64,000 nt of DNA, taken from the IMG/VR virus record IMGVR_UViG_3300046012_000505, positions 37,003-101,002 of that record; one strand, 5' to 3'. Each line of letters opens with the position of its first letter. The first letter of the stretch is position 1. Below, piece after piece: positions 5,826 to 51,453 of the stretch. Position numbers and translations under genes: made by a program. The notes under the pieces are model-generated. The model ran no database searches, had not been told where the DNA came from, and was given only the letters and a program-made list of their open reading frames with translations. The DNA comes from a virus.

Positions 5826-5947
5826 ATGAGTGCACAGAGAACGAATAACGGGAGTGCGAAGATCAACACTCCCCCGACCGGTGACCACGCGATCGCAGCG
5901 AAGGCGAGCGCGAGTCCCGCGATGGCAATACCCTTACCGACCGTCAC
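5822..5947 (-). CDS. 41-aa hydrophobic membrane peptide (not in ORF track)
   Basis: VTVGKGIAIAGLALAFAAIAWSPVGGVLIFALPLFVLCALI; GTG overlaps the ACP stop and its stop overlaps the next ATG. Confidence 0.55.
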   Translation of the reverse strand: MTVGKGIAIAGLALAFAAIAWSPVGGVLIFALPLFVLCALI

Positions 5948-10909: not shown

Positions 10910-11545
10910 TCAGCGCCCACCGCGCCCGATCGATGGCGTCTGTGACGCTGTTCGTGGCGGCCGAGCCGTGTCACTGCCCACGAGCGAGGCGTCAGCGGCC
11001 TGCCTCAGCAACCGATAGAGCGTCGAGCGGTCTATACCGAACGTCGCGGCGACGCGTGAAGCCGATTCCTTCGGGTTGCTCATCAGCAGCCGCGCCTGCT
11101 CGATCTGGTGCGGGGCAAGCTTCGGCCGCCGGCCGCCGACCTTCCCGCGTGCTCGAGCGGCGACAAGCCCGGCATTGGTCCGCTCCCGGATCAGGTCGCG
11201 CTCCATCTCGGCGAGCGCGGCCATCATGTGGAAGAACATCCGACCCGCCGGCGTCGACGTGTCGATCGTGTCGGTGATCGAGCGGAAGGCGACGCCGCGA
11301 TCGGCCAAGGTGCGAACGAGGTCGACCAGCTGGTGCACGGTGCGGCCGAGCCGGTCGAGCTTCCAGACCATGAACGCGTCGCCATCGCGCAGATCGGCGA
11401 TCGCCTTGGCGAGCTCCGGGCGGTCCAGGCGGGATCCGCTGGCCGTCTCGGTGTAGACGCGCTCGCAGCCGGCCCGCTGCAGGGCGTCGAGTTGGAGGTC
11501 GAGGAGCTGGTCATCGGTCGAGACGCGAGCGTAGCCTATCAGCAT
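10910..11545 (-). CDS. small serine recombinase (resolvase/invertase)
   Basis: MLIGYARVST, VWKLDRLGR, AALAEMERDLIRERT, C-terminal HTH GIDRSTLYR. Confidence 0.95.
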   Translation of the reverse strand: MLIGYARVSTDDQLLDLQLDALQRAGCERVYTETASGSRLDRPELAKAIADLRDGDAFMVWKLDRLGRTVHQLVDLVRTLADRGVAFRSITDTIDTSTPAGRMFFHMMAALAEMERDLIRERTNAGLVAARARGKVGGRRPKLAPHQIEQARLLMSNPKESASRVAATFGIDRSTLYRLLRQAADASLVGSDTARPPRTASQTPSIGRGGR

Positions 11546-11980: not shown

Positions 11981-12337
11981 GTGACACGCTCCAAAATCCC
12001 GTGGCCCCCTTGTGTCACACCCCGTCACCCCCTCTCTGTCTCTCTTACCACTTTGAAAAGAAAGAAAGAAAGAAAGGGGGGCCACGGATTTCGCACATCT
12101 CCACCCATATACACACGCGCACATCACGCGCGCACCTGAAGGGGTGTCTCCCGAGCGTGTCACCTGTGGCCCCCCCCTAAAAGATTGCTATAAATCAAAC
12201 ACATGACAGAGACAGAGGGAGGGCAACAGCCTGTGACACAGGGGGGCGACAAGGCTCGATCTGGGGCGTGTCACGTAGACTGGGGCGATAGTCGAACGGT
12301 CGGCGTGCACGTTAATCGTGTGTGATGTAGGTGACAC
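11981..12337. repeat. GTGACAC iteron cluster with AT-rich tracts; putative replication origin
   Basis: GTGACAC/GTGTCAC at 11981, 12012, 12157, 12233, 12268, 12331 plus partial copies, directly downstream of the replication NTPase. Confidence 0.65.
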
Positions 12338-12346
12338 GCTGGAGGG

Positions 12347-14131
12347 CTATTCGGTCGGATCGATGGCTTTGAAGGGGACGGCGACGGCACGGAAGGACGA
12401 CCCGTGGCCGAATTTCATCGAGGATTTGGACTTGATCGCACCCGGAGCGCGGGCGAGCGGCACGGCCCATTGGACGGCCCAGGAGGTGTCGCGGAGGACG
12501 CGCTCGAGGGCAGAGTGCGAGTTTGCGAACCACACGTAGTAGCCGTCTCCAGCGCCCGGGTAGGGTGCCTCGGCGGACGGCGTGGAGCCAAGCGGGTTGA
12601 GCCGCTCGACGCGTATCCCGTAACGCCGCAGATAGACCAAGGCGTTGTCCGGCGGGATCACCTCATCCTGATACTCCTTGGCCACGCTGGCTATGAGATC
12701 GCCAATCGTGCGCTCGTAGATCGAGCCGTTGCCGAGACGCAAAATGACGACCTGCTGGCAGATGAACGAGAGCAGCTTGGCGTGGTCCGGCGTCGAATTC
12801 GCCTCGATCGCAGCCTCGTTGATCCAGCCGAGCTTGATGATCGACTCGCGGGCCTGATCGATCGTCAGGGTCTTGGAGTGGTGCAGCGCCGCGGCGCCAG
12901 CGAGCAGCACCCCTAATTGGTCGCCATTGCGGCGGCTTGGCATGATCTCCGCAGCTGCCTTCGCATAGGTCTCGGCGTTGGCGCGGATCGCCGGCAGGAG
13001 GGCCAACGAGCGGCTTAGGAGACGGGTCGAGAAGTCCTTTGTCAGCGTCTTGGCCGTCATCGCGCTGATCGTCTCGAAATGTTCGGCGATCGCACGCTTC
13101 ATATCGCTGGTATTGCCTTCCGGACCCAGCAACTGGATCACCGTGAAGCGCGACTCGTCGGCCTGTTCGGTCAGCATGGGCTGGACCGACGAGAAGCACA
13201 TGGACGACCGCACGCGGTATTGCTGCCCCTTACCGGCATCGCCGCCCTTGACGATCGGCGCACCGCCTTCGGTCGACGCGGCCCGGGCGAATTCGATGAT
13301 GGTCTGGAGGCGCTCACGATCGCGCGGGTTTTTGGTGTCCGCCTCGTCGAAGATGACCGGGCGCGCATCGGATTTGAGCGCCTGGCGCAAGCCGGGCTCC
13401 GTCGTTCGAGACTGCACGGAGAGGGCGATGCCGGACAGAGACGCCTCTACGATGTGCTCCTGCACCCAGGACTTGCCGGAGCCGGGCGGCGCGCATATCC
13501 AGATGTGAGGGCGCCATGCCAGCGCACCGCAAAGAGGCGCCACGACGCACCAGCCGGCCAGGATGGTAGCCATCCAGGGCCGCTCCCATCGCAGCAGCTC
13601 GCACAACTCGAAGAACCGCCGCGCCTCGTCATTGTCGAGCCGAGGACCTGGGTTGATGCCGAACGATGTGGCTTCCTCGTAGATATTGGTGGTGTCAAAC
13701 GACGCGACGGGCTGCCGCTCGCCGTCGACGATGAGATGGTCGCCCAGGTGCAGGACGACGCGCTTGCGGTCCCACCACGCGCCACGGCCGCGCAGCCGGT
13801 CGATGTTGAACACGCCGGCGCGCAGGCACGCCTGGATGAGCGCGTTGATGGCTGCAGGACGGTCGTAACCACCCTTCTTCGGGTATTCCCGTTCCCAGTA
13901 ATGCAGCGGCGCCAGCCCGAGCAGCGTGCCGTCATTGCTCAACGCCCGGCCGTTCGCCTCAGTGATTTGGCCGGATCTGCGCGCGAGGAAGTAATAGACG
14001 CCGTGATTGTGCCCTAGCGCCCGGAATTCCGTCTCATCGAGCGAGACCTCAGCCGACTCGCCGCCGGGCTTGGCCCGCTTGGCGGCTTTGCGCGCATCGG
14101 CGAGCGGAACGACTCTCTCGTCGTCTGGCAC
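12347..14131 (-). CDS. phage replication P-loop NTPase/helicase (primase-helicase family, no N-terminal primase domain visible)
   Basis: WRPHIWICAPPGSGKS Walker A, PVIFDEAD Walker B, ADESRF. Confidence 0.8.
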   Translation of the reverse strand: MPDDERVVPLADARKAAKRAKPGGESAEVSLDETEFRALGHNHGVYYFLARRSGQITEANGRALSNDGTLLGLAPLHYWEREYPKKGGYDRPAAINALIQACLRAGVFNIDRLRGRGAWWDRKRVVLHLGDHLIVDGERQPVASFDTTNIYEEATSFGINPGPRLDNDEARRFFELCELLRWERPWMATILAGWCVVAPLCGALAWRPHIWICAPPGSGKSWVQEHIVEASLSGIALSVQSRTTEPGLRQALKSDARPVIFDEADTKNPRDRERLQTIIEFARAASTEGGAPIVKGGDAGKGQQYRVRSSMCFSSVQPMLTEQADESRFTVIQLLGPEGNTSDMKRAIAEHFETISAMTAKTLTKDFSTRLLSRSLALLPAIRANAETYAKAAAEIMPSRRNGDQLGVLLAGAAALHHSKTLTIDQARESIIKLGWINEAAIEANSTPDHAKLLSFICQQVVILRLGNGSIYERTIGDLIASVAKEYQDEVIPPDNALVYLRRYGIRVERLNPLGSTPSAEAPYPGAGDGYYVWFANSHSALERVLRDTSWAVQWAVPLARAPGAIKSKSSMKFGHGSSFRAVAVPFKAIDPTE

Positions 14132-14276
14132 GGATCAGACCGACACGCGGAGCGGCATGAAATCCCCCATAAACCGCCGAGCATCGGCGGGGTTGGACCG
14201 GGCGCGCAGGCTGTGGGGGACAGCCCACGCACCCAGTCCTCACGTTGATTGCAGGTCAACGCGGCGCCACAGAATA

Positions 14277-14401
14277 CTCACAAAATGTGGATTGGTGGTA
14301 GCCCGAAATAGCGGGGAACACGGCTTGATTGTGGCTATCTACGCTGATCGCTGACTGAGATATTCACATTTTGTGAACTTTAGCGGTTGACAATGCGTGG
14401 A
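14277..14401. promoter_or_regulatory. divergent control region: three operator-like sites and a TTGACA -35 for the plus-strand island
   Basis: CTCACAAAATGTGGA 14277-14291, TTCACATTTTGTGAA 14363-14377, TTGACAATGCGTGGA 14387-14401. Confidence 0.7.
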
Positions 14402-14457
14402 GTCGGTAGCAGAAATGAGGGACCGGAAGCTGGTTCCGGTCGCACGGAGAAAACGAC

Positions 14458-14745
14458 ATGACTCACGCCTTCATAATCACCAGGGATTGCCTCGAAAAAC
14501 GCGACATCACCGTCATCGGACCGCGCAACGCGAACGACGGTCTGGTTGCCCAACTGAAGGACGGCGGCGGTCGCGCCTTCCGCATGCTCGATGACGACGG
14601 CGAGGTCTACTACGAGGGCCGCATCCTCACGAGCGACGGCCCCGGCTCGCAAGACGACTTCGCCCCGCTCGATTGCTACGGCGAGCCGAATGCGGGCTGC
14701 ACGTCCATCCAATATCGCCAAGGCGCCGTCTGGAAATCCCTCTGA
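14458..14745 (+). CDS. hypothetical phage protein
   Basis: GGAG RBS; FRMLDDDGEVYYEG...PLD.YG.PNAGCT.I.Y motif. Confidence 0.75.
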   Translation: MTHAFIITRDCLEKRDITVIGPRNANDGLVAQLKDGGGRAFRMLDDDGEVYYEGRILTSDGPGSQDDFAPLDCYGEPNAGCTSIQYRQGAVWKSL

Positions 14746-14792
14746 CCCATCGCAGCGCGGCGGGTCCGTCCAGCCGCGTCACGATGCGCCAG
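14742..14792. repeat. conserved intergenic hairpin 1 (CTGA...CCAG)
   Basis: 20-bp imperfect stem starting at the TGA stop. Confidence 0.7.
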
Positions 14793-14815
14793 AGCATCCG
14801 ACCGAGAGGCACGCC

Positions 14816-15013
14816 ATGAGAGTCAAAATCTACGATATCGACAGCAACACGGGCGAGCAGACCCTGCGCGGCGAGGACGCTACCTTGGCCATGTTCGACG
14901 ACGACGACGACCGGCATTGGGTCGAGCACGAACTGCGGTCGCGCGGCCGCTCGTATGTCGGCGGCGGCGCTGCCCCGCTCGTCCTGCTGGTGCGCGCCGG
15001 AGACGCCCAGTGA
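14816..15013 (+). CDS. small acidic protein
   Basis: GAGAGG RBS; MRVKIYDIDS...YVGGGAAP. Confidence 0.65.
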   Translation: MRVKIYDIDSNTGEQTLRGEDATLAMFDDDDDRHWVEHELRSRGRSYVGGGAAPLVLLVRAGDAQ

Positions 15014-15441
15014 CCCGCCGCGCCATCCGTCGCGGCCTCATCTACGCCGCCATCGTGATCGTGCCGTGGGCCGTCATAGGCGTGGGCTGCGCGATGCTGG
15101 CGGGCTGCGCTGGCGCGCCGCTGACAATCAGCGACGATCCGATGGCGCCGCCGCGTGCTGCCGTCTACCGGGCGATCGGTGAGCGCGACCCGTCGTTCGC
15201 GTTTCCTGCCTGTTACGATCTCGCGTTTGCCGCCTTCGATCGGATGCGCGCAGCGGGCGAGCATCCCATTCTCGTCGCCGCCCTCACCGAGACCGGCGAG
15301 GGTCATATGCTCGTCGAGGCTGACGGGCTGGCTTTTGACAACCGCTACTCGCGTCCGCAGCCGATCGACAGCCTACCCTACCGCTGGATCGAGGCGAGCG
15401 CCGACGGCGTGTCGTGGTTCAAGGCGGGAGTCGTGCAGTGA
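15010..15441 (+). CDS. lipoprotein, transglutaminase-like cysteine peptidase (C93/LapG/BTLCP-like)
   Basis: Lipobox LAGC; CYDLA, GEGHML, FDNR give a Cys-His-Asp triad spaced as in C93 peptidases. Confidence 0.65.
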   Translation: MTRRAIRRGLIYAAIVIVPWAVIGVGCAMLAGCAGAPLTISDDPMAPPRAAVYRAIGERDPSFAFPACYDLAFAAFDRMRAAGEHPILVAALTETGEGHMLVEADGLAFDNRYSRPQPIDSLPYRWIEASADGVSWFKAGVVQ

Positions 15442-15566
15442 CCGCCGAGACCCGCGCGATCGTCCGAAACACCCTCGCCTACGTCGCGATCGTGGTTGGT
15501 TCCTGGAGCGCCGTGCTGGCGGTCATCGCGCTGCTTAGGGCGCTGATCGCCGGAGTCGTTCAGTGA
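15438..15566 (+). CDS. 42-aa single-TM peptide (not in ORF track)
   Basis: VTAETRAIVRNTLAYVAIVVGSWSAVLAVIALLRALIAGVVQ; GTGA coupling at both ends. Confidence 0.6.
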   Translation: MTAETRAIVRNTLAYVAIVVGSWSAVLAVIALLRALIAGVVQ

Positions 15567-15823
15567 AGACCGGACCGCGCCTGTTCTGCGGCATCTACCC
15601 GTGCGGGCTGGTGTTCGCCGATCGCCACGTCGAGGTCGCGGGCGACTACAAGCGCCTCGCGTTCCTGCCCTACCGCACGCTGGTGGTGGAGTTCGAGAAG
15701 GACTGCCCTGCAGCGCTCCGCGCCGAGATCGCGGCCGACATCGCGCGGATGGCGCTGCGGGCCGGCGACGAATTCCAGATCAGCACCAGCGGCCAGACGA
15801 TCATCCTTGGAGGCGGGAAGTGA
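15563..15823 (+). CDS. hypothetical phage protein
   Basis: Coupled ORF with GGAG RBS. Confidence 0.7.
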   Translation: MKTGPRLFCGIYPCGLVFADRHVEVAGDYKRLAFLPYRTLVVEFEKDCPAALRAEIAADIARMALRAGDEFQISTSGQTIILGGGK

Positions 15824-16023
15824 TCGACAACGGCACCCCACCAGCGATCCAAGCCGCGATGGCGCGCCGGCCCAAACTCACCGTCACCGGACTGCCGGGC
15901 CGCAGCGACGACTTCACCGTCTACCCGCTCACGCTGGCCGACGCGGAGAAGATGGCCGAGCGGTACGCCGCGAAGCATCCCGGCTGCAGCGTCACGATCA
16001 CGTCAGCCGGAGCCGCACCATGA
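15820..16023 (+). CDS. hypothetical protein
   Basis: GTG overlaps upstream stop; GGAGG RBS. Confidence 0.6.
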   Translation: MIDNGTPPAIQAAMARRPKLTVTGLPGRSDDFTVYPLTLADAEKMAERYAAKHPGCSVTITSAGAAP

Positions 16024-16235
16024 CCGACTTCGCCATCGCGAACGAGCGTCCCGGCGACTGCGCGAAGTGCCACGGCACCGGGCGCTACCGTTGGGGCGGC
16101 CGCACGGTCAACGGGCAGTGGCGCGGCCACGAAGGCGACTGCCATTCGTGCCGGGGAACGGGCCGGCAGACCGAGCAGGATATCCGCCGGAACCGCGCCT
16201 ACAACCGCCGGAAAATTTCCACGATTTCACTCTGA
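16020..16235 (+). CDS. DnaJ-type zinc-finger protein
   Basis: CAKCHGTG...CHSCRGTG (two CxxCxGxG). Confidence 0.75.
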   Translation: MTDFAIANERPGDCAKCHGTGRYRWGGRTVNGQWRGHEGDCHSCRGTGRQTEQDIRRNRAYNRRKISTISL

Positions 16236-16256
16236 CCAGCAGCAGGAGAAACGACC

Positions 16257-16802
16257 ATGCCGAAAATCTACATCGTCCAAGCCGAACACCCCGCTGTGCC
16301 GGGCCGGCCGATCAGCGCCCACGCGACGATGGTGGGTGCACTGGCGCGCGCGCTGGAGCTTGTGAACATCATCCGCGAGGCTGTCGAGTTACCACAAATC
16401 GCCAAGTTGGCAGATGAGGCGGCGCTTGATGCCGCGCTCGCCCAAGTGGCGACCGCTAGCGACTATGCGTTCGACCCCGAGGGTGATGAGGGCGATTTCG
16501 ACGTCTGGATTACCTCGCTCGATTTGCAGGGCGACGCGGAAGCCGTCGCGGTGCCGCGCACGGTATTAGCCGATCTTCTCAAACTTGCGGCCACGGCGCC
16601 GGCCTATGCCACGAGTGGCCAGCAATGGGCCGTTCGGGCGGTATGGGACGCGCGTGGGCTTGAGGGCGCCACGGCCGCGCCAGAGGCGTCCGCTCCGGCG
16701 ACGCGACATTTCGCGCATACCGAGGAATCCTGCCCGTCGAAGCACTGGAACGACGGCGACGACGTTTGCGCCGACTGCGGCGCCGACTTGCAGGGAGCCT
16801 GA
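16257..16802 (+). CDS. hypothetical acidic protein with C-terminal Cys/His motif
   Basis: AGGAG RBS; C...HW...CADCG. Confidence 0.7.
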   Translation: MPKIYIVQAEHPAVPGRPISAHATMVGALARALELVNIIREAVELPQIAKLADEAALDAALAQVATASDYAFDPEGDEGDFDVWITSLDLQGDAEAVAVPRTVLADLLKLAATAPAYATSGQQWAVRAVWDARGLEGATAAPEASAPATRHFAHTEESCPSKHWNDGDDVCADCGADLQGA

Positions 16803-16854
16803 CCCTCTCGCCAGCGCGCTCGCCCACCACCGGGCGCGCTGGAATGAAGGCCAG
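16799..16854. repeat. conserved intergenic hairpin 2 (CTGA...CCAG)
   Basis: CCAGCGCGCTCG/CGGGCGCGCTGG core with outer CTG/CAG. Confidence 0.7.
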
Positions 16855-16877
16855 ACGACCAGCAGAGGGAGAAGCAG

Positions 16878-17162
16878 ATGAAATCGTTCGCCGACGTGAA
16901 ACGCCGCCTGCAGATCGGCACCGTGCTCGAGTGCGTCGAGAACACCTATCGACCGGAACTGAACGGCACGCGCCGCATCGTCACGAAGGTGCAGGGCAAC
17001 GCGATCCGCTGGCGCAACACAGACGAAGCGCCCGACGCGCGCCCGAGCTGGACGCCGTTTCCGCCCGCCAGCAACACCGCGATCGTCGACGCCGACACTT
17101 TCCAACTCTCACTCAAGCGCGATGGCCACTACGTGCGCCTGCGCTTCATCGACGCCGCCTAA
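16878..17162 (+). CDS. hypothetical protein
   Basis: GGGAG RBS. Confidence 0.7.
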   Translation: MKSFADVKRRLQIGTVLECVENTYRPELNGTRRIVTKVQGNAIRWRNTDEAPDARPSWTPFPPASNTAIVDADTFQLSLKRDGHYVRLRFIDAA

Positions 17163-17189
17163 CCAGCAACCCCGAGAACGGAGAGACAG

Positions 17190-17624
17190 ATGAGCAAATT
17201 CCACGTCCACCTATACGCGACCGTTCGCGTCAAGATGTGCGACGTCGAAGCCGCCGACCAAGGCGCGGCCGTGCGCGAGGCTGTGCGCCTGTTCGATGGC
17301 GATGCGACCTTCAGCCGGTTCAACGAGAACGTCGCCTATGCCGACGAGATTACCGCCGCGCTAGTCGACACCGTCGGGGACGAACAATTCTCCGAGAGCC
17401 GCACCTACACGCCCGATGGCGAGCCGGACAGTGGAGCGGCACGTAGGATCGACGCCGCCACGGTCGCGGAGGCAATCACCGTCCTGCGCCGCCTGCACGC
17501 CACCCTTGAGGGAGAGTGGGCCGACCCCGCCGCCTACGGCATGCCGATCGAGAACCCCGACCACAACCACCACGACGACATGATGGCGCTGCGTGGCGTC
17601 ATAGCCAAGCTCCCCTCGCCCTGA
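17190..17624 (+). CDS. hypothetical acidic protein
   Basis: GGAG RBS. Confidence 0.7.
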   Translation: MSKFHVHLYATVRVKMCDVEAADQGAAVREAVRLFDGDATFSRFNENVAYADEITAALVDTVGDEQFSESRTYTPDGEPDSGAARRIDAATVAEAITVLRRLHATLEGEWADPAAYGMPIENPDHNHHDDMMALRGVIAKLPSP

Positions 17625-17674
17625 TCGCAGCTAGAGCGCCGGCACCACGCGCCGACGCTCACTGCTGCAATCGG
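17621..17674. repeat. conserved intergenic hairpin 3 (CTGA...TCGG)
   Basis: CTGAT/ATCGG, GCAGC/GCTGC, GAGCG/CGCTC, CGGC/GCCG. Confidence 0.7.
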
Positions 17675-17699
17675 CAGCGTCATCAACCGGAGACCTACC

Positions 17700-18143
17700 A
17701 TGTCGAACGTGAAACTGAAGAACGAACTCACCCGCCAGATCAACAGCGCAATCGCCAGCGGCGTATTCGCCCGGCTGTGCGGCGGGCTGCCCGGCCTCGA
17801 GGTCTCCACCGCGCTGAAGGACGGCGCCATCGGCATCGACATCGAGCGGTCGCCGGTCGACCTCGTGAGCCATGACGTACTCGAGCCGAGCGATCACGGC
17901 TACGTCTACAAGATCACCTTTGCCGACGACAGCACGCCCGAGGGCGCCGCGATCAAGGCGGCACTCCGCGAAATCGCCGAGCGGGTCATCCAGCGGCACG
18001 CGCGCTACCGGATCCACGTCACCGGCCGCTGCATGGGGCAGCAAGTCGACAGGATGCGCGCAGGCCAGTCCGTCGAGACGGTCACGGTCCCGCCAGCCGC
18101 GATCGTCGCGGCGCCGGCAGCCGACCTGTTCGCCGCGCTCTGA
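17700..18143 (+). CDS. hypothetical protein
   Basis: GGAG RBS. Confidence 0.7.
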   Translation: MSNVKLKNELTRQINSAIASGVFARLCGGLPGLEVSTALKDGAIGIDIERSPVDLVSHDVLEPSDHGYVYKITFADDSTPEGAAIKAALREIAERVIQRHARYRIHVTGRCMGQQVDRMRAGQSVETVTVPPAAIVAAPAADLFAAL

Positions 18144-18192
18144 CGCACTGCGAGCGGCAGGGGTCGCACCCGGCCGCTCCGATGTGCACCAG
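18140..18192. repeat. conserved intergenic hairpin 4 (CTGA...CCAG)
   Basis: CTG/CAG, GCAC/GTGC, GAGCGGC/GCCGCTC, GGGT/ACCC. Confidence 0.7.
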
Positions 18193-18213
18193 ACCAGAAG
18201 AAGGGGAGACACG

Positions 18214-18483
18214 ATGACCAAGCACACCGCCGAGCCGTGGACGGCAACCGATATCGGCACGCTTCACGGCAAGGATAGCCAATTCATAGCCGAGCTAGGT
18301 GGCATGCGGGCCGAGGCGGATCTGCGCCGCATCGCCGCTTGCGTCAACGCCTGCGCCGGCATTTCCACGCAACAACTGGAAGCGTTCGCCTTCGTCATGA
18401 GGCCCGGGAGTGACAGACCGTTCGATCGCCTGGCGACAAAAGAGGCGTGGCGCAAACTGCGCGTCGCCCAGGCCACCCCATGA
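18214..18483 (+). CDS. hypothetical phage protein
   Basis: MTKHTAEPW...RRIAACVNACAGI motif; GGGGAG RBS. Confidence 0.7.
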   Translation: MTKHTAEPWTATDIGTLHGKDSQFIAELGGMRAEADLRRIAACVNACAGISTQQLEAFAFVMRPGSDRPFDRLATKEAWRKLRVAQATP

Positions 18484-18641
18484 CCCGCAAACCCGTCATC
18501 TACAACGGCCGGCCGATCGGCGAGGCGTCGACTTGGCGCGAGGTCGACGAGCTTATCGCCGAGCAGGGCCGCCCGATGTCCGGCGGCGATCGAGTGTCCG
18601 AGGGACCGGACGGATTTCACATCGAGACGAGGAGGAAATAG
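18480..18641 (+). CDS. hypothetical protein
   Basis: ATGA coupling. Confidence 0.55.
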   Translation: MTRKPVIYNGRPIGEASTWREVDELIAEQGRPMSGGDRVSEGPDGFHIETRRK

Positions 18642-18643
18642 CC

Positions 18644-19174
18644 ATGTCAGACCGTAGCAGCGCCAGCATCGACATCGGCGGGAAACTTGCCGCCGACAAG
18701 ATCGACGAACTCGCCGACGCCATCGAGAGCGAGGGAGTCGGACTCGATTGGGGCGAGTATCTCGACGCCGCCGGCGCGCGTGCCGCAATCGTCGACGCGT
18801 TCACCAGCAAGGGACCGCTGCGCCTCATGGCGAACGAGGTACGCGGCGGCGCGTTCGAGTCGCTGGAATCCATCTGCCGCGAACTCGGCCTCACCTACTG
18901 CCGAGGCGACGACGGGCGCTACACATGGACGGCCAGCCTCGTCTACTGGGAGCCGGGATTTGCCGAGCCGCAGGAATGGAACGGCACCGTCGACAACCAC
19001 ACCCCGCAACTCGACGCCTGGAAAATCCGCAAACTACTCGGCCCGCAGTGCGACAACATCGCTGCCCTGCGCGCCGAACTCGACCTGATGGACAAAGCCG
19101 AGAAGTTCGCCATCCCGCTCGTGATTGAGGGCGATATCGTTGAGCCGGCCGACGACGAGGCGACGGCGCAATGA
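18644..19174 (+). CDS. hypothetical acidic protein
   Basis: GGAGG RBS. Confidence 0.7.
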   Translation: MSDRSSASIDIGGKLAADKIDELADAIESEGVGLDWGEYLDAAGARAAIVDAFTSKGPLRLMANEVRGGAFESLESICRELGLTYCRGDDGRYTWTASLVYWEPGFAEPQEWNGTVDNHTPQLDAWKIRKLLGPQCDNIAALRAELDLMDKAEKFAIPLVIEGDIVEPADDEATAQ

Positions 19175-19365
19175 CCGGCGCCGACATGTGCGCGTGGAGA
19201 ACCCGTCTCGCGCTGCGCCAGGAGGACGCCGCGTCGCTCATCGGCTGCTCCAGCCGCCGGCTACGCAGCTACGAGCACGACGACGCGATTATCCCGAGGA
19301 AGATCGAACTCGCGTGTGAGGCGATCGAGGCACGTTTAACGAGGGGGAATGAAAATGCAGCGTGA
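19171..19365 (+). CDS. small XRE-like HTH protein
   Basis: WRTRLALRQEDAASLIGCSSRRLRSYE...IPRKIELACEAI. Confidence 0.75.
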   Translation: MTGADMCAWRTRLALRQEDAASLIGCSSRRLRSYEHDDAIIPRKIELACEAIEARLTRGNENAA

Positions 19366-22036
19366 GATCGAGGTCGACAACTTCGCGGGCGGCGGCGGCG
19401 CGTCCACTGGCATCGAGATGGCGACAGGGCGCCCGATCGCCATCGCGGTGAACCACGACGAAGAAGCCATCGCGATGCACGCCGCCAATCATCCCGACAC
19501 GGAACATATGTGCCAGTCCGTGTGGCGCGCTGATCCCCGCGACGTGGCGCGCGGGCGCCCCGTCGGCCTCGCGTGGTTCTCGCCCGATTGCTTTCCAGCC
19601 GGCACAATGGTTCTGACGCGCGACGGCTACCGCGCGATCGAGGAGATTCAAGCCGGCGACGAAGTGCTCACGCACAGGCTGCGCTGGAAAAAAGTCACCG
19701 AGACGCACCAAACCACCAAGCCTGTGCTGACGCTACGCGGGCACGGCCATCCAGGCTTGACCGTGAGCCATGAGCATCCGTTCTATGCGCGCCAGCGACC
19801 GGCGCCGGTTTGGAACAATGATCGCCGGTCTTACGAGTGGAATTTGAACGAGCCGAGATGGGCGCCAGCATCGATGCTGGATCGCGGATGGTACTGGGGC
19901 ACGCCGCGCCAGTTTCCCCCGTCAGAAGCTCCCGCCGTTGGCGGCCGCGGAATGATGGTCGACGAAAGCCTGATGTGGCTCGCCGGCCGCTATCTCGGCG
20001 ATGGCTGGTCTCGCATCACAGAAACGCGCGCCGAACTTGTCATAATCTGCGGCAAGCATGAGCATCAAACCCTCCGCGCGACGCTGGAGGCATGGCCGCG
20101 CCAGGGTTACCGTGCGGGACACAACGAACTTGCATGGCATTGGCGCGAGGTCGAGACCGCCTATCAGGGATCAACCAATCATCGCGGCCTTGTCGAGTGG
20201 CTACGCTCGCACTTCGGTCACGGGGCCGGCACGAAGACCGTGCCAGCATGGGCCTTGGGTCTATCCGACCACCTGCGCCGCGCTCTGCTGCAAGGCTACC
20301 TCAGCGCCGACGGCAACCGCGATCACGCCAAGGCTTTCGTCGAGTGCAACACAATCTCTAAAGCTCTCGCCTTCGGCATCAAGGCGCTGGCTAATAGCCT
20401 GGGTCACACCGCAGGAATCTATCTCAACAGCAATAACACCACTACCATCGAGGGCCGCATTGTCTCGGCGCAACCGATTTACAAGCTGCGCTGGCGGGAT
20501 GAAGTCTCGGCACTTCACGAGCAGACGCGCACCGAGAACGGCATCGAATGGTGTCCCATCCGTGAGCAGTCTGACACGGGGCAATCAGCCACGGTCTATA
20601 ACATCGGCGTTGAGGACGACGAGAGCTATATCGTCGAGGGGATCATCGTCCACAACTGCAAGCACTTCTCCAAGGCGAAGGGCAGTCAGCCCGTCAAGCG
20701 CAACATCCGCGACCTCGCCTGGGTGGTGATCCATTGGGCGAAGCTCGTGCAGCCGCGCATCATCATGCTGGAGAACGTCGAGGAATTCCGCGATTGGGGT
20801 CCGCTGATCGAGGGCGTCGACGGTAAGATGGTTCCCTGCCCGCTCCGCAAGGGGCTGACCTATCGCCGCTGGAAACGGGAGTTGGTGAAGCTCGGATACC
20901 GCGTCGAGGACCGCGAGCTACGCGCCTGCGACTACGGTGCGCCGACCATCCGCAAGCGCCTGTTCGTCATCGCGCGGCGCGACGGCCTGCCGATCATTTG
21001 GCCGGCGCCTACGCACGCCCCTCTTCGGCTAAGCCAGGATGGCATCGTTACGGAGTGGGCACGCGGACATGGCCTGACACTTAAGGACATCCAAAACCTC
21101 AAGCCGTACCGCACCGCGGCAGACTGCATCGACTGGTCTATTCCTTGCCCGTCGATCTTCGAGCGCGATCGCCCGCTGGCCGAGAACACCATGCGGCGTA
21201 TCGCGGCAGGCATCAAACGCTACGTGATCGACGCGGCCACGCCATTCATCGTGCCGGTGACGCACCACGGCGACAGCCGAGTCCACGGCATCGACGAGCC
21301 GCTCCGTACCGTGACCACGGCACCCCGAGGCGAACACGCCCTGGTGACGCCGTTCATCGCCCCGCGCTACGGCGAGCGCCCGGGCCAGGAGCCGCGCACC
21401 CACGCCGCCGACAAGCCGATCCCGACCATCGTTCCGACCGCGAACGGCGCCCGGCTAGTCGCGGCGTTCATGGCGCAGCACAATACCGGGATGGTAGGCC
21501 ACCCGATGACCAAGCCTCTCTCCACCATCATCCAACGCGGAACGACGCAGGGTCTCGTGACGTCCAACCTCGTCAAGCTGCGCGGCACCTGCAAGGACGG
21601 CCAGCCAGTCGACGAGCCGGCGCCGACGATCACCGCCGGCGGATGGCACATCGGCGAAGTCCGCGCCTTCCTCATCAAGTATTTCGGCACCGACCAGGAT
21701 CCGCGCCTGGAGGAGCCGATGCACACCGTCACGACGCGCGACCGCTTCGGCCTCGTCACCGTGGCCGGCGAGGAATACCAGATTGTCGACATTGGGATGC
21801 GGATGCTGACCCCGCGCGAGCTTTTCCGGGCGCAGGGCTTCCCGGAATCGTACATCATCGATCCGATGTTCAACGGAAAGCCCCTGACGAAGACATCCCA
21901 GGTCCGCTGCTGCGGCAACTCTGTCTGTCCGCCGCTGTCCGAGGCGCTTGTCCGGGCGAATTACGTGCCCGATCAGGTCGCGCCGACGCGGCGCCGTCCA
22001 GCCGCCGTCCAGCCTGTCGTCGCGGCGCTGTTCTGA
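19349..22036 (+). CDS. DNA cytosine-5 methyltransferase interrupted by an intein
   Basis: Motif I DNFAGGGG, motif IV SPD|C, ENVEEF, RKRLF, C-terminal GNSVCP. Confidence 0.93.
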   Translation: MKMQREIEVDNFAGGGGASTGIEMATGRPIAIAVNHDEEAIAMHAANHPDTEHMCQSVWRADPRDVARGRPVGLAWFSPDCFPAGTMVLTRDGYRAIEEIQAGDEVLTHRLRWKKVTETHQTTKPVLTLRGHGHPGLTVSHEHPFYARQRPAPVWNNDRRSYEWNLNEPRWAPASMLDRGWYWGTPRQFPPSEAPAVGGRGMMVDESLMWLAGRYLGDGWSRITETRAELVIICGKHEHQTLRATLEAWPRQGYRAGHNELAWHWREVETAYQGSTNHRGLVEWLRSHFGHGAGTKTVPAWALGLSDHLRRALLQGYLSADGNRDHAKAFVECNTISKALAFGIKALANSLGHTAGIYLNSNNTTTIEGRIVSAQPIYKLRWRDEVSALHEQTRTENGIEWCPIREQSDTGQSATVYNIGVEDDESYIVEGIIVHNCKHFSKAKGSQPVKRNIRDLAWVVIHWAKLVQPRIIMLENVEEFRDWGPLIEGVDGKMVPCPLRKGLTYRRWKRELVKLGYRVEDRELRACDYGAPTIRKRLFVIARRDGLPIIWPAPTHAPLRLSQDGIVTEWARGHGLTLKDIQNLKPYRTAADCIDWSIPCPSIFERDRPLAENTMRRIAAGIKRYVIDAATPFIVPVTHHGDSRVHGIDEPLRTVTTAPRGEHALVTPFIAPRYGERPGQEPRTHAADKPIPTIVPTANGARLVAAFMAQHNTGMVGHPMTKPLSTIIQRGTTQGLVTSNLVKLRGTCKDGQPVDEPAPTITAGGWHIGEVRAFLIKYFGTDQDPRLEEPMHTVTTRDRFGLVTVAGEEYQIVDIGMRMLTPRELFRAQGFPESYIIDPMFNGKPLTKTSQVRCCGNSVCPPLSEALVRANYVPDQVAPTRRRPAAVQPVVAALF
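19589..20656 (+). mobile_element. intein (356 aa) with LAGLIDADG homing endonuclease
   Basis: Starts CFPAGTMVLT, ends IIVHN before C; WLAGRYLGDG and LLQGYLSADG blocks. Confidence 0.93.
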
Positions 22037-22219
22037 GTATCGAGAGAAACCGCACCAAGCACTTTTTTCAATTATTTTTCGCTAATGAAATCAAGGGGCA
22101 CGATTCAAAAAACCCTTGATATTGGCCTGTTTCTGCAATTTCCGAAAACTCGATATGCTACAATAGCACTGTCAGCCGGTGGAACGGCTGGCAGTGTCGA
22201 AAGCAAGATGGAGATGAAA

Positions 22220-22504
22220 ATGGGTTGGATTATGTTGCCGAAACCCGGAGCGAAAGATGGACCTTGCAAGGGGAATTGTAAACACCTCGATTGCAAGGCG
22301 ACGAAGCAGGAGGCCGAATGCCTCTGCACGCATTGTCAGAAGCCGATCGGCTTCGAGACGAAGTTCTATATCGACCGCCCGGAGTCGGGCATCAGCGTCG
22401 TCGGCCAGCGCATCTACTCGCACTTCCTCTGCGCGATCAAAGCCGCCGACGAGAGGCGCAAGAAACTTCCGCCGCTCGACCTCGGCCATCTAGGCGCTAT
22501 GTAA
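22220..22504 (+). CDS. Cys/His-rich small protein with its own AT-rich promoter (moron-like)
   Basis: C..C.H..C, CTHC, HFLC; extended -10 TGCTACAAT at 22156-22164; alternative starts 22208/22214. Confidence 0.65.
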   Translation: MGWIMLPKPGAKDGPCKGNCKHLDCKATKQEAECLCTHCQKPIGFETKFYIDRPESGISVVGQRIYSHFLCAIKAADERRKKLPPLDLGHLGAM

Positions 22505-22520
22505 TCGGCTGGCCGCGCTC

Positions 22521-23501
22521 CTAACCGGGCGCGGCCGCCGCCACAAATATCCGCGGTATCGCCCGGTAAGCCAACTTCTGCAGCGCTTCCCCGTGCTCTG
22601 TGCTATCGCCGGTCAGCCCCGTCGCCTCAATTAGCAGCCGGCGAGCGCGGCCAGATTTCCAGTTGAGTACGCAGCAGCCCGGCGCTCCGGCCGCGCCCGC
22701 CTCGTTCCACGCGGCCGGCGTCGCATACACCCTTACCGCTTTACCATCCTCGAGACGCTGTTCCGCATGAGCCCATCCGACGATGTCGAGTCCGCCTTCT
22801 CTGACCCACCACTTCGCTGGCTCTTTCGGATCCCAGGCGACGATATCGGCGACGTCCAGCCAGCGCGGCCGCGTGGCGACCGTGGTGCCGCACCACTCAT
22901 CGAGTACCGGCTGCATCGCCTCGCGAATGATCTCTACCGGGCAGTCCTCACAATCGGCCGCCAGCAGCGCCGGCTCGACGTGCTCGATATAGCAGAAATC
23001 CATGAGCCACCGGGCGCGCCCTTCCTTGTCCGTTGGTGCTAAATTCAGCCACGCTAGGCGGTCCGCATACGACCACAACGACGGCTCCCGAGCTTCGTAC
23101 AGCGGCAAAGTCGCCAGCCAGCGCCCTTCCGGGTCCGGCTCCCAATACTTGCTTCCCACGGACGCGCGGACGGCTCCAAGCGGCATCGGCGCCGGCTCAG
23201 ACGGCCACCAGGACGGCACGCCAGCCTCAAAACCCAAGTCGGAATCGACGATATCCGCGTGCGGTGGCAACAGCACGCCAGGCGCCATCGTCAGCGCCGC
23301 ATCGAGCAGCTGTGGAAACGATTCAGCGAACCGCTTTCGGTTCCGTCGCGCCCATGCCTCCCACGCCTCGACGGCAATGGACGACCGCAGATTGCCGCTT
23401 CGTTCGCGTATCTGACCGTCGACGAGCCCGCGAATCGCGCGCCGAACCGCCAGGGCGCGCGACTGCTCGACCGTCAGCCCGCTACCCAAACAGCCCGCCA
23501 T
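22521..23501 (-). CDS. replication-region protein, possibly a degenerate primase/Toprim-like domain
   Basis: DIVAW.P..P..WW.R.G...G...ATPAAW..AG...G.CVL pattern recalled from alphaproteobacterial phage replication modules. Confidence 0.5.
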   Translation of the reverse strand: MAGCLGSGLTVEQSRALAVRRAIRGLVDGQIRERSGNLRSSIAVEAWEAWARRNRKRFAESFPQLLDAALTMAPGVLLPPHADIVDSDLGFEAGVPSWWPSEPAPMPLGAVRASVGSKYWEPDPEGRWLATLPLYEAREPSLWSYADRLAWLNLAPTDKEGRARWLMDFCYIEHVEPALLAADCEDCPVEIIREAMQPVLDEWCGTTVATRPRWLDVADIVAWDPKEPAKWWVREGGLDIVGWAHAEQRLEDGKAVRVYATPAAWNEAGAAGAPGCCVLNWKSGRARRLLIEATGLTGDSTEHGEALQKLAYRAIPRIFVAAAAPG

Positions 23502-47194: not shown

Positions 47195-47514
47195 TGGCCG
47201 CTCCGCGCCAGCGCCCGGCATCCGAGCCTCGCGGCTATACGCTCGACGAGGTCGCGAATTATCTCGGCCACGCGCGCAATTGGCTGACCGCCGAACGGCT
47301 CGCCGAGCTGCGCAAGAGCGGCTTCCCGCCCATCGACCCCCTGCTCGAGCGCGTCGACAAGCGCGCCCTTGATGCCTGGTGGGACGCGCGGAGCGGAATC
47401 CTGCCGCCGCTTGACGGCGACCGGCCGAACGATCCAGCATCCTCGCGGCCCAATCCCTGGCGAGGAGCGTTGCGCGATGGAGATCAAAATTCCCCACGTC
47501 ATCGCCATCCGTAA
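47194..47514 (+). CDS. xis: excisionase-like HTH protein
   Basis: YTLDEVANYLG...GFP..DP....D.RALDAW; immediately upstream of int. Confidence 0.7.
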   Translation: MAAPRQRPASEPRGYTLDEVANYLGHARNWLTAERLAELRKSGFPPIDPLLERVDKRALDAWWDARSGILPPLDGDRPNDPASSRPNPWRGALRDGDQNSPRHRHP

Positions 47515-48529
47515 GCGCGGCGGCCGGAAAGGCGATCGCGTCCTCTACTACTGGCGCCGCAAGGGTCACAAGCTGCGTCGCCTGCCGAACGACCCACGGG
47601 CGCCGGCGTTCCTCGCGAAGCTCAATCAGTTCGAGCGCGAGGCGGCGGCAGAGGCCGGGCCGGCCGCCCCGGATCCCGAAACCATCGCCTGGCTGATAGA
47701 AAAATACCTCGCCAGTCCCGACACCGCCGCGCTGGCGCCGCGCACCGTGGTCAATTATCGCTTCTTTCTCAACCGCCTCCTGCCAAAGTTCGGCCATCTC
47801 CCCTATGCCGCCCTCGACCGCGAGGCGGTCTATGATCTGCGGGACCATTTCGCGGCCAAGCCAAACACCGCGAACGAGATCGTCTCGGCGCTGCGCGGCA
47901 TGCTGACATGGGCCGTCGACCGCGGCATCCTCGCGGTCAACGTGGCGCAGCGCCCGAAGCGCATCTATGTCGCCCGCCGCCACGCAATGTGGTCCCACGC
48001 CGACGAGAAGGCCTTCCTCGATGCGGCCGACCCGACGATGGCGCTCGCCTTCATGCTCGGCGCCTACACGGCGCAGCGCCTCGCCGATATCTGCGGGATG
48101 ACCTGGGGCCAGTACAACGGCAAGACGATCAAGCTCGTCCAGATGAAGACCGAGCGTCGCGCCCATCGCCTTATCGAGGTGCCGTGCCATGCCGACCTCA
48201 AGACCGTTCTCGACGCCGCCAAGCGATCCTCGATCATGATCCTGACGACGCCGACCGGGAAGGCGTTCAAGCCGTCGAATTTCAACCTGCGCTGGAAGAT
48301 GGTCTCGCGCGCCGCCGGGATCAGAGGGCTGCAGTTCCGCGATCTCCGGCGCACCGCCATCGTCCGGCTCGGCGAGGCCGGTGCAAATGCCATCCAGATC
48401 GCCGCGGTCAGCGGCCACGACATCAACACCAGCCAGAAGATTTTGGAGACCTATTTGCCGCGCAATTTCCGCATGGCGGAAGCGGCGATCTTGGCGCTCG
48501 AGCGAGACAGGCCGGGAACAAAAGTGTAA
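47477..48529 (+). CDS. int: tyrosine integrase
   Basis: AQRLADI (R), QMKT (K), FRDLRRT, VSGH, ETY (Y). Confidence 0.93.
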   Translation: MEIKIPHVIAIRKRGGRKGDRVLYYWRRKGHKLRRLPNDPRAPAFLAKLNQFEREAAAEAGPAAPDPETIAWLIEKYLASPDTAALAPRTVVNYRFFLNRLLPKFGHLPYAALDREAVYDLRDHFAAKPNTANEIVSALRGMLTWAVDRGILAVNVAQRPKRIYVARRHAMWSHADEKAFLDAADPTMALAFMLGAYTAQRLADICGMTWGQYNGKTIKLVQMKTERRAHRLIEVPCHADLKTVLDAAKRSSIMILTTPTGKAFKPSNFNLRWKMVSRAAGIRGLQFRDLRRTAIVRLGEAGANAIQIAAVSGHDINTSQKILETYLPRNFRMAEAAILALERDRPGTKV

Positions 48530-51194: not shown

Positions 51195-51391
51195 TGGTTG
51201 CCTCCATGAGGGACGAAATAGACGACGACGGTCGTCAGGATGGTCTGGATCGCCTGCCCGATCTCGGACGGCAACGGCGGCTGGATGTAGCGGTTGAGCA
51301 GGTAGACGACGATGGTCGTCAGGGCGCCGGCGAGAACGGCGCCAACGGCCTTGTTGACGCCGATCACGGGAGCGGGAGGAAGTGCGGTCAC
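51191..51391 (-). CDS. holin-like two-TM protein
   Basis: NKAVGAVLAGALTTIVVYLL...QTILTTVVVYFVP; AGGAG RBS. Confidence 0.65.
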   Translation of the reverse strand: MTALPPAPVIGVNKAVGAVLAGALTTIVVYLLNRYIQPPLPSEIGQAIQTILTTVVVYFVPHGGNQ

Positions 51392-51453
51392 TGGTGGGGT
51401 GCTCCTTTCGAGCATGGAAGGGGCCGCCCCACGACGGAGCGGCCGCGTTGAAA

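Follow-up and report, generated by a model that had tools for sequence, protein, structure and literature searches.

Stop-anchored hairpins between small genes of an uncultured soil phage: candidate punctuation of an early message

The early mRNA of phage T7 carries RNase III signals (R0.3, R0.5, R1, R1.1 and R1.3), and in bacteria the stem-loops of the Rhodobacter capsulatus puf operon and stabilisers of the repetitive extragenic palindrome (REP) type protect the upstream mRNA from 3' exonucleases and set different levels up- and downstream. In cluster K phages an asymmetric motif, the start-associated sequence (SAS), overlaps and extends the ribosome-binding site (RBS) of a subset of genes, with 11-19 copies per genome; just 5' of about half of the SAS sites lies a ~50-bp imperfect inverted repeat, the extended SAS (ESAS), whose arms are conserved and which now appears to hold a SigA promoter (PMC3203893, PMC11373665). 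The promoter early stem-loop (PeSL) cassettes of T4-type phages include a strong sigma-70 promoter as well as stem-loops that function as terminators (PMC2839356, PMC4122927). Here we describe four hairpins, H1 to H4, that begin at stop codons in an array of small genes on a 64,000-nt stretch of DNA (the window), which corresponds to bases 37003-101002 of one virus contig of 101,002 bp with 65% GC (IMG/VR record IMGVR_UViG_3300046012_000505). The source is an uncultured 101-kb soil phage, a singleton in all collections searched, and its host is probably an alphaproteobacterium. We tentatively propose that the hairpins are intercistronic stem-loops in an early polycistronic mRNA, whose segments they would process or stabilise, and that a start-associated leader local to the array comes after them. 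Positions are those of the window unless the genome is named.

Compared with the T7 signals, the hairpins are alike in being irregular stems of ~20 bp with an internal loop, placed between the cistrons of what would be one early transcript, after the stop of one gene and ahead of the RBS of the next, and in having no U-tract; the density is also similar, T7 having about five in 7 kb and this operon four in 7.6 kb. They are unlike them in showing no sequence relation, in being predicted folds only and in holding the stop codon inside the stem, and the phage itself is unrelated to T7. With the puf and REP-type stabilisers they share the form of U-less hairpins behind a stop inside an operon, in an alphaproteobacterial-type system; unlike the hairpins here, those stabilisers are single sites in cellular operons. 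The array belongs to none of the compared systems by sequence or by defining features, and we regard it as a fairly ordinary feature.

All four hairpins were located on the + strand: H1 (51 nt) at 14742-14792, H2 (56 nt) at 16799-16854, H3 (54 nt) at 17621-17674 and H4 (53 nt) at 18140-18192. Each starts at a C followed by a TGA stop codon; H1, H2 and H4 close with CCAG and H3 with TCGG. Coordinates and sequences agreed with those of an earlier reading made from the letters alone (the sequence-only reading), which had also reported that the hairpins lack a U-tract and are soon followed by an RBS and an ATG. No T-run was found behind any of the four, and the ATGs, at 14816, 16878, 17700 and 18214, lie 21-25 nt past the hairpin ends. 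On the sense strand all four were predicted to fold in two tiers with 17-19 pairs, about two helical turns. The basal stem of 9-11 nt includes the stop codon and has an A.C opposition at position 4 in three of the four; it is followed by an internal loop at positions 10-13 (2x2 at positions 12-13/39-40 in H1, 3x3 in H2, 2x3 in H3) and then by a GC-rich upper stem starting at position 13-14 (position 14 in H1), which in H2 is a perfect 12-bp helix. The tops consist of one mismatch, 2-4 further pairs and a loop of 5-8 nt. The stem of H1 can be extended by 2 bp to 14740-14794 (CTCTG...CAGAG). A ribosome halted on the TGA would cover roughly the basal tier only.

When all 132 stop codons of the genome were scanned for stop-anchored hairpins, H1-H4 were among the best 15, and they were the only single-stem hairpins of 51-56 nt at offset 0 in short gaps between co-oriented genes; the remaining good ones lay inside overlapping downstream genes or in long gaps. 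A stop-anchored hairpin of 58 nt (-31.8 kcal/mol), which starts with CTAACC, was seen outside the window on the - strand (L003:176-475, genome 20176-20475), 3' of a 99-aa late gene in a 244-nt gap; it has a perfect GC stem, unlike H1-H4. A C precedes all seven non-overlapped stops of the operon, compared with 21% of stops genome-wide, and three operon stops read CTCTGAC.

The minimum free energies (MFE) of the sense RNA were -25.4, -31.3, -28.9 and -29.5 kcal/mol for H1, H2, H3 and H4 (z = -3.3, -4.6, -4.3 and -3.3, from 200 shuffles, of which 0-2 folded as well), and those of the bottom strand were -32.5, -36.3, -38.3 and -30.5 kcal/mol (z = -4.8, -4.2, -6.5 and -3.0). The folds are thus more stable than shuffled sequence on both strands, with z between -3.0 and -6.5. 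A sliding-window MFE scan did not discriminate, with 435 clusters at or below -28 kcal/mol in the genome. Coding DNA of this genome often forms stems of -28 kcal/mol, and therefore the case rests on placement and regularity and not on energy.

The sequence-only reading had counted about ten A.C mismatches versus about three G.T pairs and had concluded that the bottom strand folds better. Our recount over the predicted pairs gave 12 A.C oppositions on the top strand (G.U on the bottom) versus 3 top-strand G.U, which differs from a 50:50 distribution at p = 0.018. The coding strand of the operon is rich in A and C; allowing for this puts the expected share at 0.59 and raises p to 0.074. The bottom strand folded better with DNA parameters in three hairpins and equally well in one; in the RNA folds its advantage was greatest for H3 (-38.3 vs -28.9 kcal/mol). 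Antisense windows of + strand genes folded on average 1.4 kcal/mol better (sd 4.5). The bias is real as a count; it is no compelling sign that the bottom strand is functional.

The internal sequences of the hairpins had been described as different, which held for most pairs; the exception is H1 and H4, which are ~72% identical. Their likeness stands at z = 5 against shuffles and in the 0.6% tail against 490 other GC-rich hairpin windows, and no other pair showed significant likeness in the same comparison. Two double, compensatory changes separate the stems (C-G to A-T and T-A to C-G), and a register shift in H4 preserves a stem length equal to that of H1. From this we concluded that a single element probably gave rise to both H1 and H4, which have since diverged. 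Searches of the genome with each hairpin (blastn-short) gave no extra copies, MAFFT alignments of the four were not structurally meaningful, and in Rfam no family passed its gathering threshold, the matches at E<=5 being chance ones to microRNAs or sRNAs.

According to a gene map of the window drawn from codon bias, the array sits inside one + strand block of 17 genes that extends from ~14.4 to ~22.0 kb and that we infer to be transcribed as a single unit. Gene map, sequence and primase homology delimit a divergent control region of 326 nt (14132-14457) between the primase gene (12347-14131, - strand) and the array. The promoter of the operon is presumed to lie within it, and a TTGACA found there overlaps a palindromic operator-like site near 14387. 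A sigma-70 promoter scan of 13900-22600 gave no match, and it also misses the presumed promoter of the operon itself. An AT-rich gap of 183 nt, 3' of the methyltransferase gene, closes the block. Most junctions in the operon are 4-nt start/stop overlaps with the stereotyped form GCCGGAG-N7-RTGACC; in the coupled junctions within 14996-16025, where GCCGGAG, 7 nt and RTGACC follow each other, codon 2 is usually ACC. Two further junctions are short (21 and 27 nt) and four are longer (70, 75, 75 and 70 nt). The hairpins fill all four of the longer gaps, and every operon gap above 30 nt holds one.

The two short junctions read CTGACCAGCAG (16232) and CTAACCAGCAA (17159), as the sequence-only reading had given them, and the motif GACCAG[C/A]AG recurs after two of the hairpins as it had noted, with GACCAGCAG behind H2 and GACCAGAAG behind H4. 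This motif occurs four times in the 64-kb window, compared with 0.74 expected, and three of the four copies lie in the array, each just before an RBS. At the first hairpin-less junction (16232-16256, + strand) the CTGA overlaps GACCAGCAG (16234-16242), which is followed by the RBS GGAGA and by the ATG at 16257. In the leader behind H2 (16855-16877, +) GACCAGCAG lies at 16857-16865 and is followed by the RBS GGGAGA; in that behind H4 (18192-18213, +) GACCAGAAG lies at 18192-18200, with the RBS GGGGAGA and the ATG at 18214. The second hairpin-less junction (17159-17189, +) runs from CTAACCAGCAA to GGAGAGACAG and then the ATG, and holds a variant of the motif. Altogether (G)ACCAG[C/A]A(G) followed by GGAGA is present at four of the six junctions, three times exactly and once as a variant; upstream of starts genome-wide, only Shine-Dalgarno words were enriched. 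An inverted repeat accompanies two of the four motif-bearing junctions, and its arms are not conserved. We propose that a junction of the array is made of a stop, an optional hairpin module and a standard leader, and that in the absence of the hairpin the same leader abuts the stop. A start-associated motif with an optional upstream inverted repeat, standing before different gene families, is the arrangement of SAS and ESAS in cluster K; unlike there, the arms vary here, no promoter was seen and the motif is restricted to 3-4 junctions within a single operon.

In the proposed mechanism a single early mRNA would start in the divergent control region at ~14.4 kb and run to ~22.0 kb. Each hairpin would fold in two tiers, as an irregular stem of ~17-19 bp, directly behind a coding block, and would either be cut by a host double-strand-specific endonuclease (RNase III type) or block 3'-to-5' exonucleases. 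By either route the upstream mRNA segment would end in a protective stem-loop, and the next gene would be translated independently from its own leader of 21-25 nt, the hairpin being an optional module between stop codon and leader. Some effect on expression would be expected.

Efficient intrinsic termination at the hairpins is unlikely, since no T-run follows them and a canonical U-tailed terminator is present elsewhere (5826-5943). Because no sigma-70-like promoter was seen in 13900-22600 and only 21-25 nt remain between hairpin and ATG, the downstream genes should depend on read-through transcripts. We counted in favour of RNA punctuation the constant length of 51-56 nt and constant ATG spacing across four gaps, the stem-preserving changes between H1 and H4, the local enrichment of the leader motif and the missing DNA-level enzymes. 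The sequence-only reading had offered either a cassette-shuffling system or an RNA-processing array; the latter fits the anatomy of the predicted folds, whereas an attC-like system is not supported, with core, integron integrase and Y1 transposase missing.

A number of observations weigh against the proposal. A search of sequencing runs listed no RNA run with the phage. The basal stem contains the stop codon, so that a terminating ribosome would melt it. In folding calculations the start region (-16 to +3) was no more accessible with the hairpin than with a shuffled or deleted hairpin, and occupancy of the stop region by a ribosome changed RBS accessibility inconsistently (+0.22, +0.02, -0.13 and +0.13). 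Four copies, with no relatives, are available for covariation. Among coding windows of this genome of 65% GC the sense energies reach only the 1-9% level, and the 12:3 excess of non-Watson-Crick pairs that favour the bottom strand, which is not significant after correction, is the opposite of what selection on the sense RNA would give.

That hairpin and leader are instead DNA linkers for gene shuffling, through homologous recombination as in the T4-type PeSL or through an unknown site-specific enzyme acting on the folded bottom strand in an attC-like manner, we consider unlikely, and it is the alternative with most to be said for it. As with the PeSL, stem-loops bound genes without database relatives (ORFans) in a plastic early region and short conserved sequences stand beside unrelated genes; related boundary modules, namely H1 and H4 and the GACCAG[C/A]AG that precedes three different genes, fit this, as do the two hairpin-less junctions that resemble the leader minus the hairpin module and the array genes, which are ORFans or mosaics. 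The bottom strand folds better in three to four of the four hairpins, and integrase-less clusters of attC sites do exist in phages (PMC9892861). On the other hand, unlike in the PeSL, no promoter was found in the scan of 13900-22600 and no U-tract is present, and the shared sequence is limited to the 9-16-nt leader motif and the H1/H4 pair. As substrates of homologous recombination, stretches of 9-16 nt are very short, three of the four hairpins have no significant common sequence, the hairpins have no AAC/GTT core, the genome has no integron integrase or Y1 transposase, and the strand bias stands at p = 0.074 after composition correction.

Part of the evidence on exchange in this region comes from the source sample. 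The soil source run holds the phage at ~7000x together with a minor population at ~120x, and a lake-water metagenome holds the same phage at 2-3x, with no differences in the pieces shown (window 12000-23000). Differences relative to the runs were listed at a minimum share of 10, and those of the ~120x minor population fall outside this listing. In one minor contig the match covers the final 30 nt of the H2 junction (stem end and leader) up to 16872 and then resumes at 17469, which is the start of a C-terminal module common to other proteins, and the joint fits protein P0003. This suggests that a relative keeps the leader ahead of a different gene, a hint of the kind of exchange seen in the T4-type cassettes; the joint is known from match coordinates, in one contig and with 30 nt on one side, which counts against the shuffling linkers. 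Another minor contig skips 19423-20655 of the methyltransferase gene, as if the relative carried an intein-less allele. Module exchange thus seems to occur in the array region, and the breakpoints glimpsed, thin as these glimpses are, lie at the leader motif before the ATG (16872) and inside a gene (17469). They are at an RBS and within a gene, not at CTGA/CCAG, which also speaks against linkers that are joined at the hairpin ends.

We think it doubtful that the hairpins are leaky U-less attenuators or pause sites that would give a descending gradient along the early operon, perhaps relieved by a phage antiterminator or by ribosomes close behind the polymerase. The upper stems are rich in GC, that of H2 being perfect, and they resemble the U-less GC hairpins that end other blocks (gaps 51368-51453; genome 24220-24484 and 20476-20533); their location right behind stops would make folding sensitive to the terminating ribosome; and the 71-aa zinc-ribbon gene at 16020-16235 matches a Q-like antiterminator family weakly (E = 0.0045), a match within noise. 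The stems nevertheless differ from the phage's compact terminators in being long and irregular, they have no U-tract although the phage uses a canonical U-tailed terminator elsewhere, and a terminator scan listed none of the four sites. The canonical intrinsic terminator at 5826-5943 (- strand) has a GGGAGTG...CACTCCC stem and then a T-rich tail, and several other gene blocks of the phage finish in perfect GC hairpins without a U-tract.

A reading as decaying palindromic insertions or filler, selfish or slippage-born, without function and drifting, appears improbable to us. GAC(C) stands at the stop (TGAC) and is repeated where the leader begins behind H1, H2 and H4, like a target duplication; TGAC(C) is however a common stop context, with CC after 25% of all stops of the genome. 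The mismatches track the A/C-rich composition of the strand, as drift predicts, and the start sites gain no accessibility, both of which would suit elements without function. Against drift stand the constant length, spacing and two-tier shape, and the stem that H1 and H4 keep through double changes and a register shift; against insertion, the copies have neither common sequence nor the terminal repeats of a mobile family, and no further copies exist in the 101-kb genome.

The specific form of the shuffling idea in which the hairpins are structure-defined, sequence-variable cassette recombination sites lacking both integron core and integrase is very improbable. Here the bottom strand would fold as the DNA replicates, and some enzyme of phage or host would cut and rejoin it at the fixed CTGAC/CCAG ends, a step we regard as no less improbable; that the hairpin-less CTGACCAG and CTAACCAG junctions are scars or empty sites is equally so. 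With attC sites, including those of phage clusters that lack an integron integrase (CALINs; PMC9892861), the hairpins share the form of imperfect, stop-anchored, sequence-variable palindromes of similar size behind co-oriented promoter-less small genes, and a bottom strand that folds somewhat better. The statement of the sequence-only reading that they are not canonical attC proved right: the 5' ends read (C)TCTGAC or GCCTGAC and the 3' ends GCCAGAG, GCCAGAC or ACCAGAC, with no GTT, and a GCCTAAC turns up by coincidence at the hairpin-less junction at 17159 alone. Unlike attC sites, which usually measure 57-141 nt, the hairpins measure 51-56 nt, lack the RYYYAAC/GTTRRRY cores and show no consistent extrahelical bases, and only four operon junctions carry a site. 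The internal loop is present in all four on the top strand; when the bottom strand folds it is mostly closed in H1 and H2, and asymmetric loops occur only in H3 and H4. The integron integrase, which is not required for CALINs, is not in this genome, whose one tyrosine recombinase (47477-48529, phrog_1), an ordinary phage integrase, lies 29 kb away and gave no match to the integron-integrase model TIGR02249 at E<=0.001. The Y1 transposase (PF01797) is absent from the genome by a search whose controls matched. Hairpin elements of the REP/RAYT or IS200/IS605 type were rejected, with no PF01797 and no further hairpin copies found in the genome; an enzyme encoded by the host is conceivable. A serine recombinase of the DNA-invertase family (phrog_125, E 2e-76) is encoded on the - strand at 10910-11545, 3 kb from the array. 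Serine invertases work on short inverted sites, not on hairpins.

Least probable of all is that the hairpins are protein-binding DNA palindromes, operators or promoters as proposed for the cluster K ESAS, through which each downstream block would be regulated separately. The layout does match that of the ESAS (PMC3203893, PMC11373665), in which about half of the start-associated motifs have a ~50-bp imperfect inverted repeat directly 5' of them, and the phage has a palindromic operator-like site elsewhere, near 14387. The arms however differ from site to site, so that one protein could not read all of them, no -35/-10 hexamers were found, and the operator-type palindrome known from this genome is another motif, a short one of 15 bp.

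Three further candidates were rejected: a T7-like promoter (ACGAC...GGGAGA), for which no T7-type RNA polymerase was found in the genome by a search whose controls cannot show sensitivity; translational bypass of the T4 gene 60 type, for which no matching landing codon follows H1; and a bacterial selenocysteine insertion sequence (SECIS), with the UGA in the stem base, downstream genes that have their own RBS and ATG, and no Rfam SECIS match. Readthrough after H2 would meet a TGA after 14 codons, and neither H1 nor H4 is in frame with the following gene. The 75 nt that follow the TGA of the gene at 17190-17624 (17625-17699, the H3 gap) are in frame and stop-free, and readthrough would fuse this gene to that at 17700-18143; the open frame is probably a coincidence in GC-rich DNA.

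The genes of the array lie on the + strand. The first gene of the operon (14458-14745) encodes 95 aa (phrog_12268, function unknown) and ends with CTC TGA C at H1. Six small genes without hairpins, joined by 4-nt overlaps, follow at 14816-15013, 15010-15441, 15438-15566, 15563-15823, 15820-16023 and 16020-16235. The gene at 16257-16802 encodes 181 aa with a C-terminal Cys motif (CPSKHW...CADCG) just 5' of H2; the motif was found again in two metagenomic proteins, and in one of the two, P0009, it is joined via PPPPP to a copy of the N-terminal domain of the same gene. The 94-aa gene at 16878-17162 matches no known family. By comparison with protein databases the 144-aa gene at 17190-17624 is a mosaic: its N-terminal half is similar to metagenomic proteins of 82 aa, and its C-terminal ~55 aa, which adjoin H3, are highly similar (in alignment nearly identical) to the C-termini of two proteins with other N-termini. 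Modules of array genes therefore reappear in differently built proteins, from which exchange inside genes is also concluded. The 147-aa gene at 17700-18143, the sole single gene with hairpins on both sides (H3 and H4), has only distant homologues (33-38% identity); its domain is repeated 7-9 times in the giant proteins P0011 and P0012 (2017 and 4421 aa). The remainder of the operon (18214-18483, 18480-18641, 18644-19174, 19171-19365 and 19349-22036) is tightly coupled and without hairpins, and its last gene encodes a C5 cytosine methyltransferase split by an intein (Hint, LAGLIDADG and intein-splicing domains, residues ~81-436).

The contig encodes a portal, head proteins, primase, helicase, integrase and invertase. 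A giant frame on the - strand leaves the contig at its end and resumes at its start (window 55360-63999 and L002:2-9354; 2879 and 1546 aa), and the next frame has 1570 aa; from this a circular or circularly permuted contig is probable, despite its classification as linear and 89% complete. No relative of the array genes and the primase was found in the phage, plasmid, IMG/VR, metagenome or genome collections. In blastn searches of phages and plasmids the array matched only a 120-nt patch in Arthrobacter phages, or had no match at all. Scans of contigs from viruses, metagenomes and genomes, seeded with two array proteins, the primase, the homologues P0005 and P0006 and alignment A4, gave no relatives. 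Portal relatives do exist at 44-51% identity, and five complete ones are without the primase, so that the structural module alone is in common; the primase of Bordetella phage PHB04 sits in a different context. What follows the homologue of the first gene in Arthrobacter phage Tallboi is a perfect terminator hairpin of the ordinary kind, which does not resemble H1.

If the proposed RNA punctuation is correct, this would be another tailed phage that cuts a long early message into separately tuned pieces, here in a phage unrelated to T7 and with a high-GC host, by signals that would be set by shape and position rather than by sequence. Hairpins and leader motif together give a simple picture of accessory genes as plug-in units, each made of a stop, an optional hairpin, a standard leader and the gene, which may be of practical value for annotation and for the design of multi-gene constructs in such hosts.

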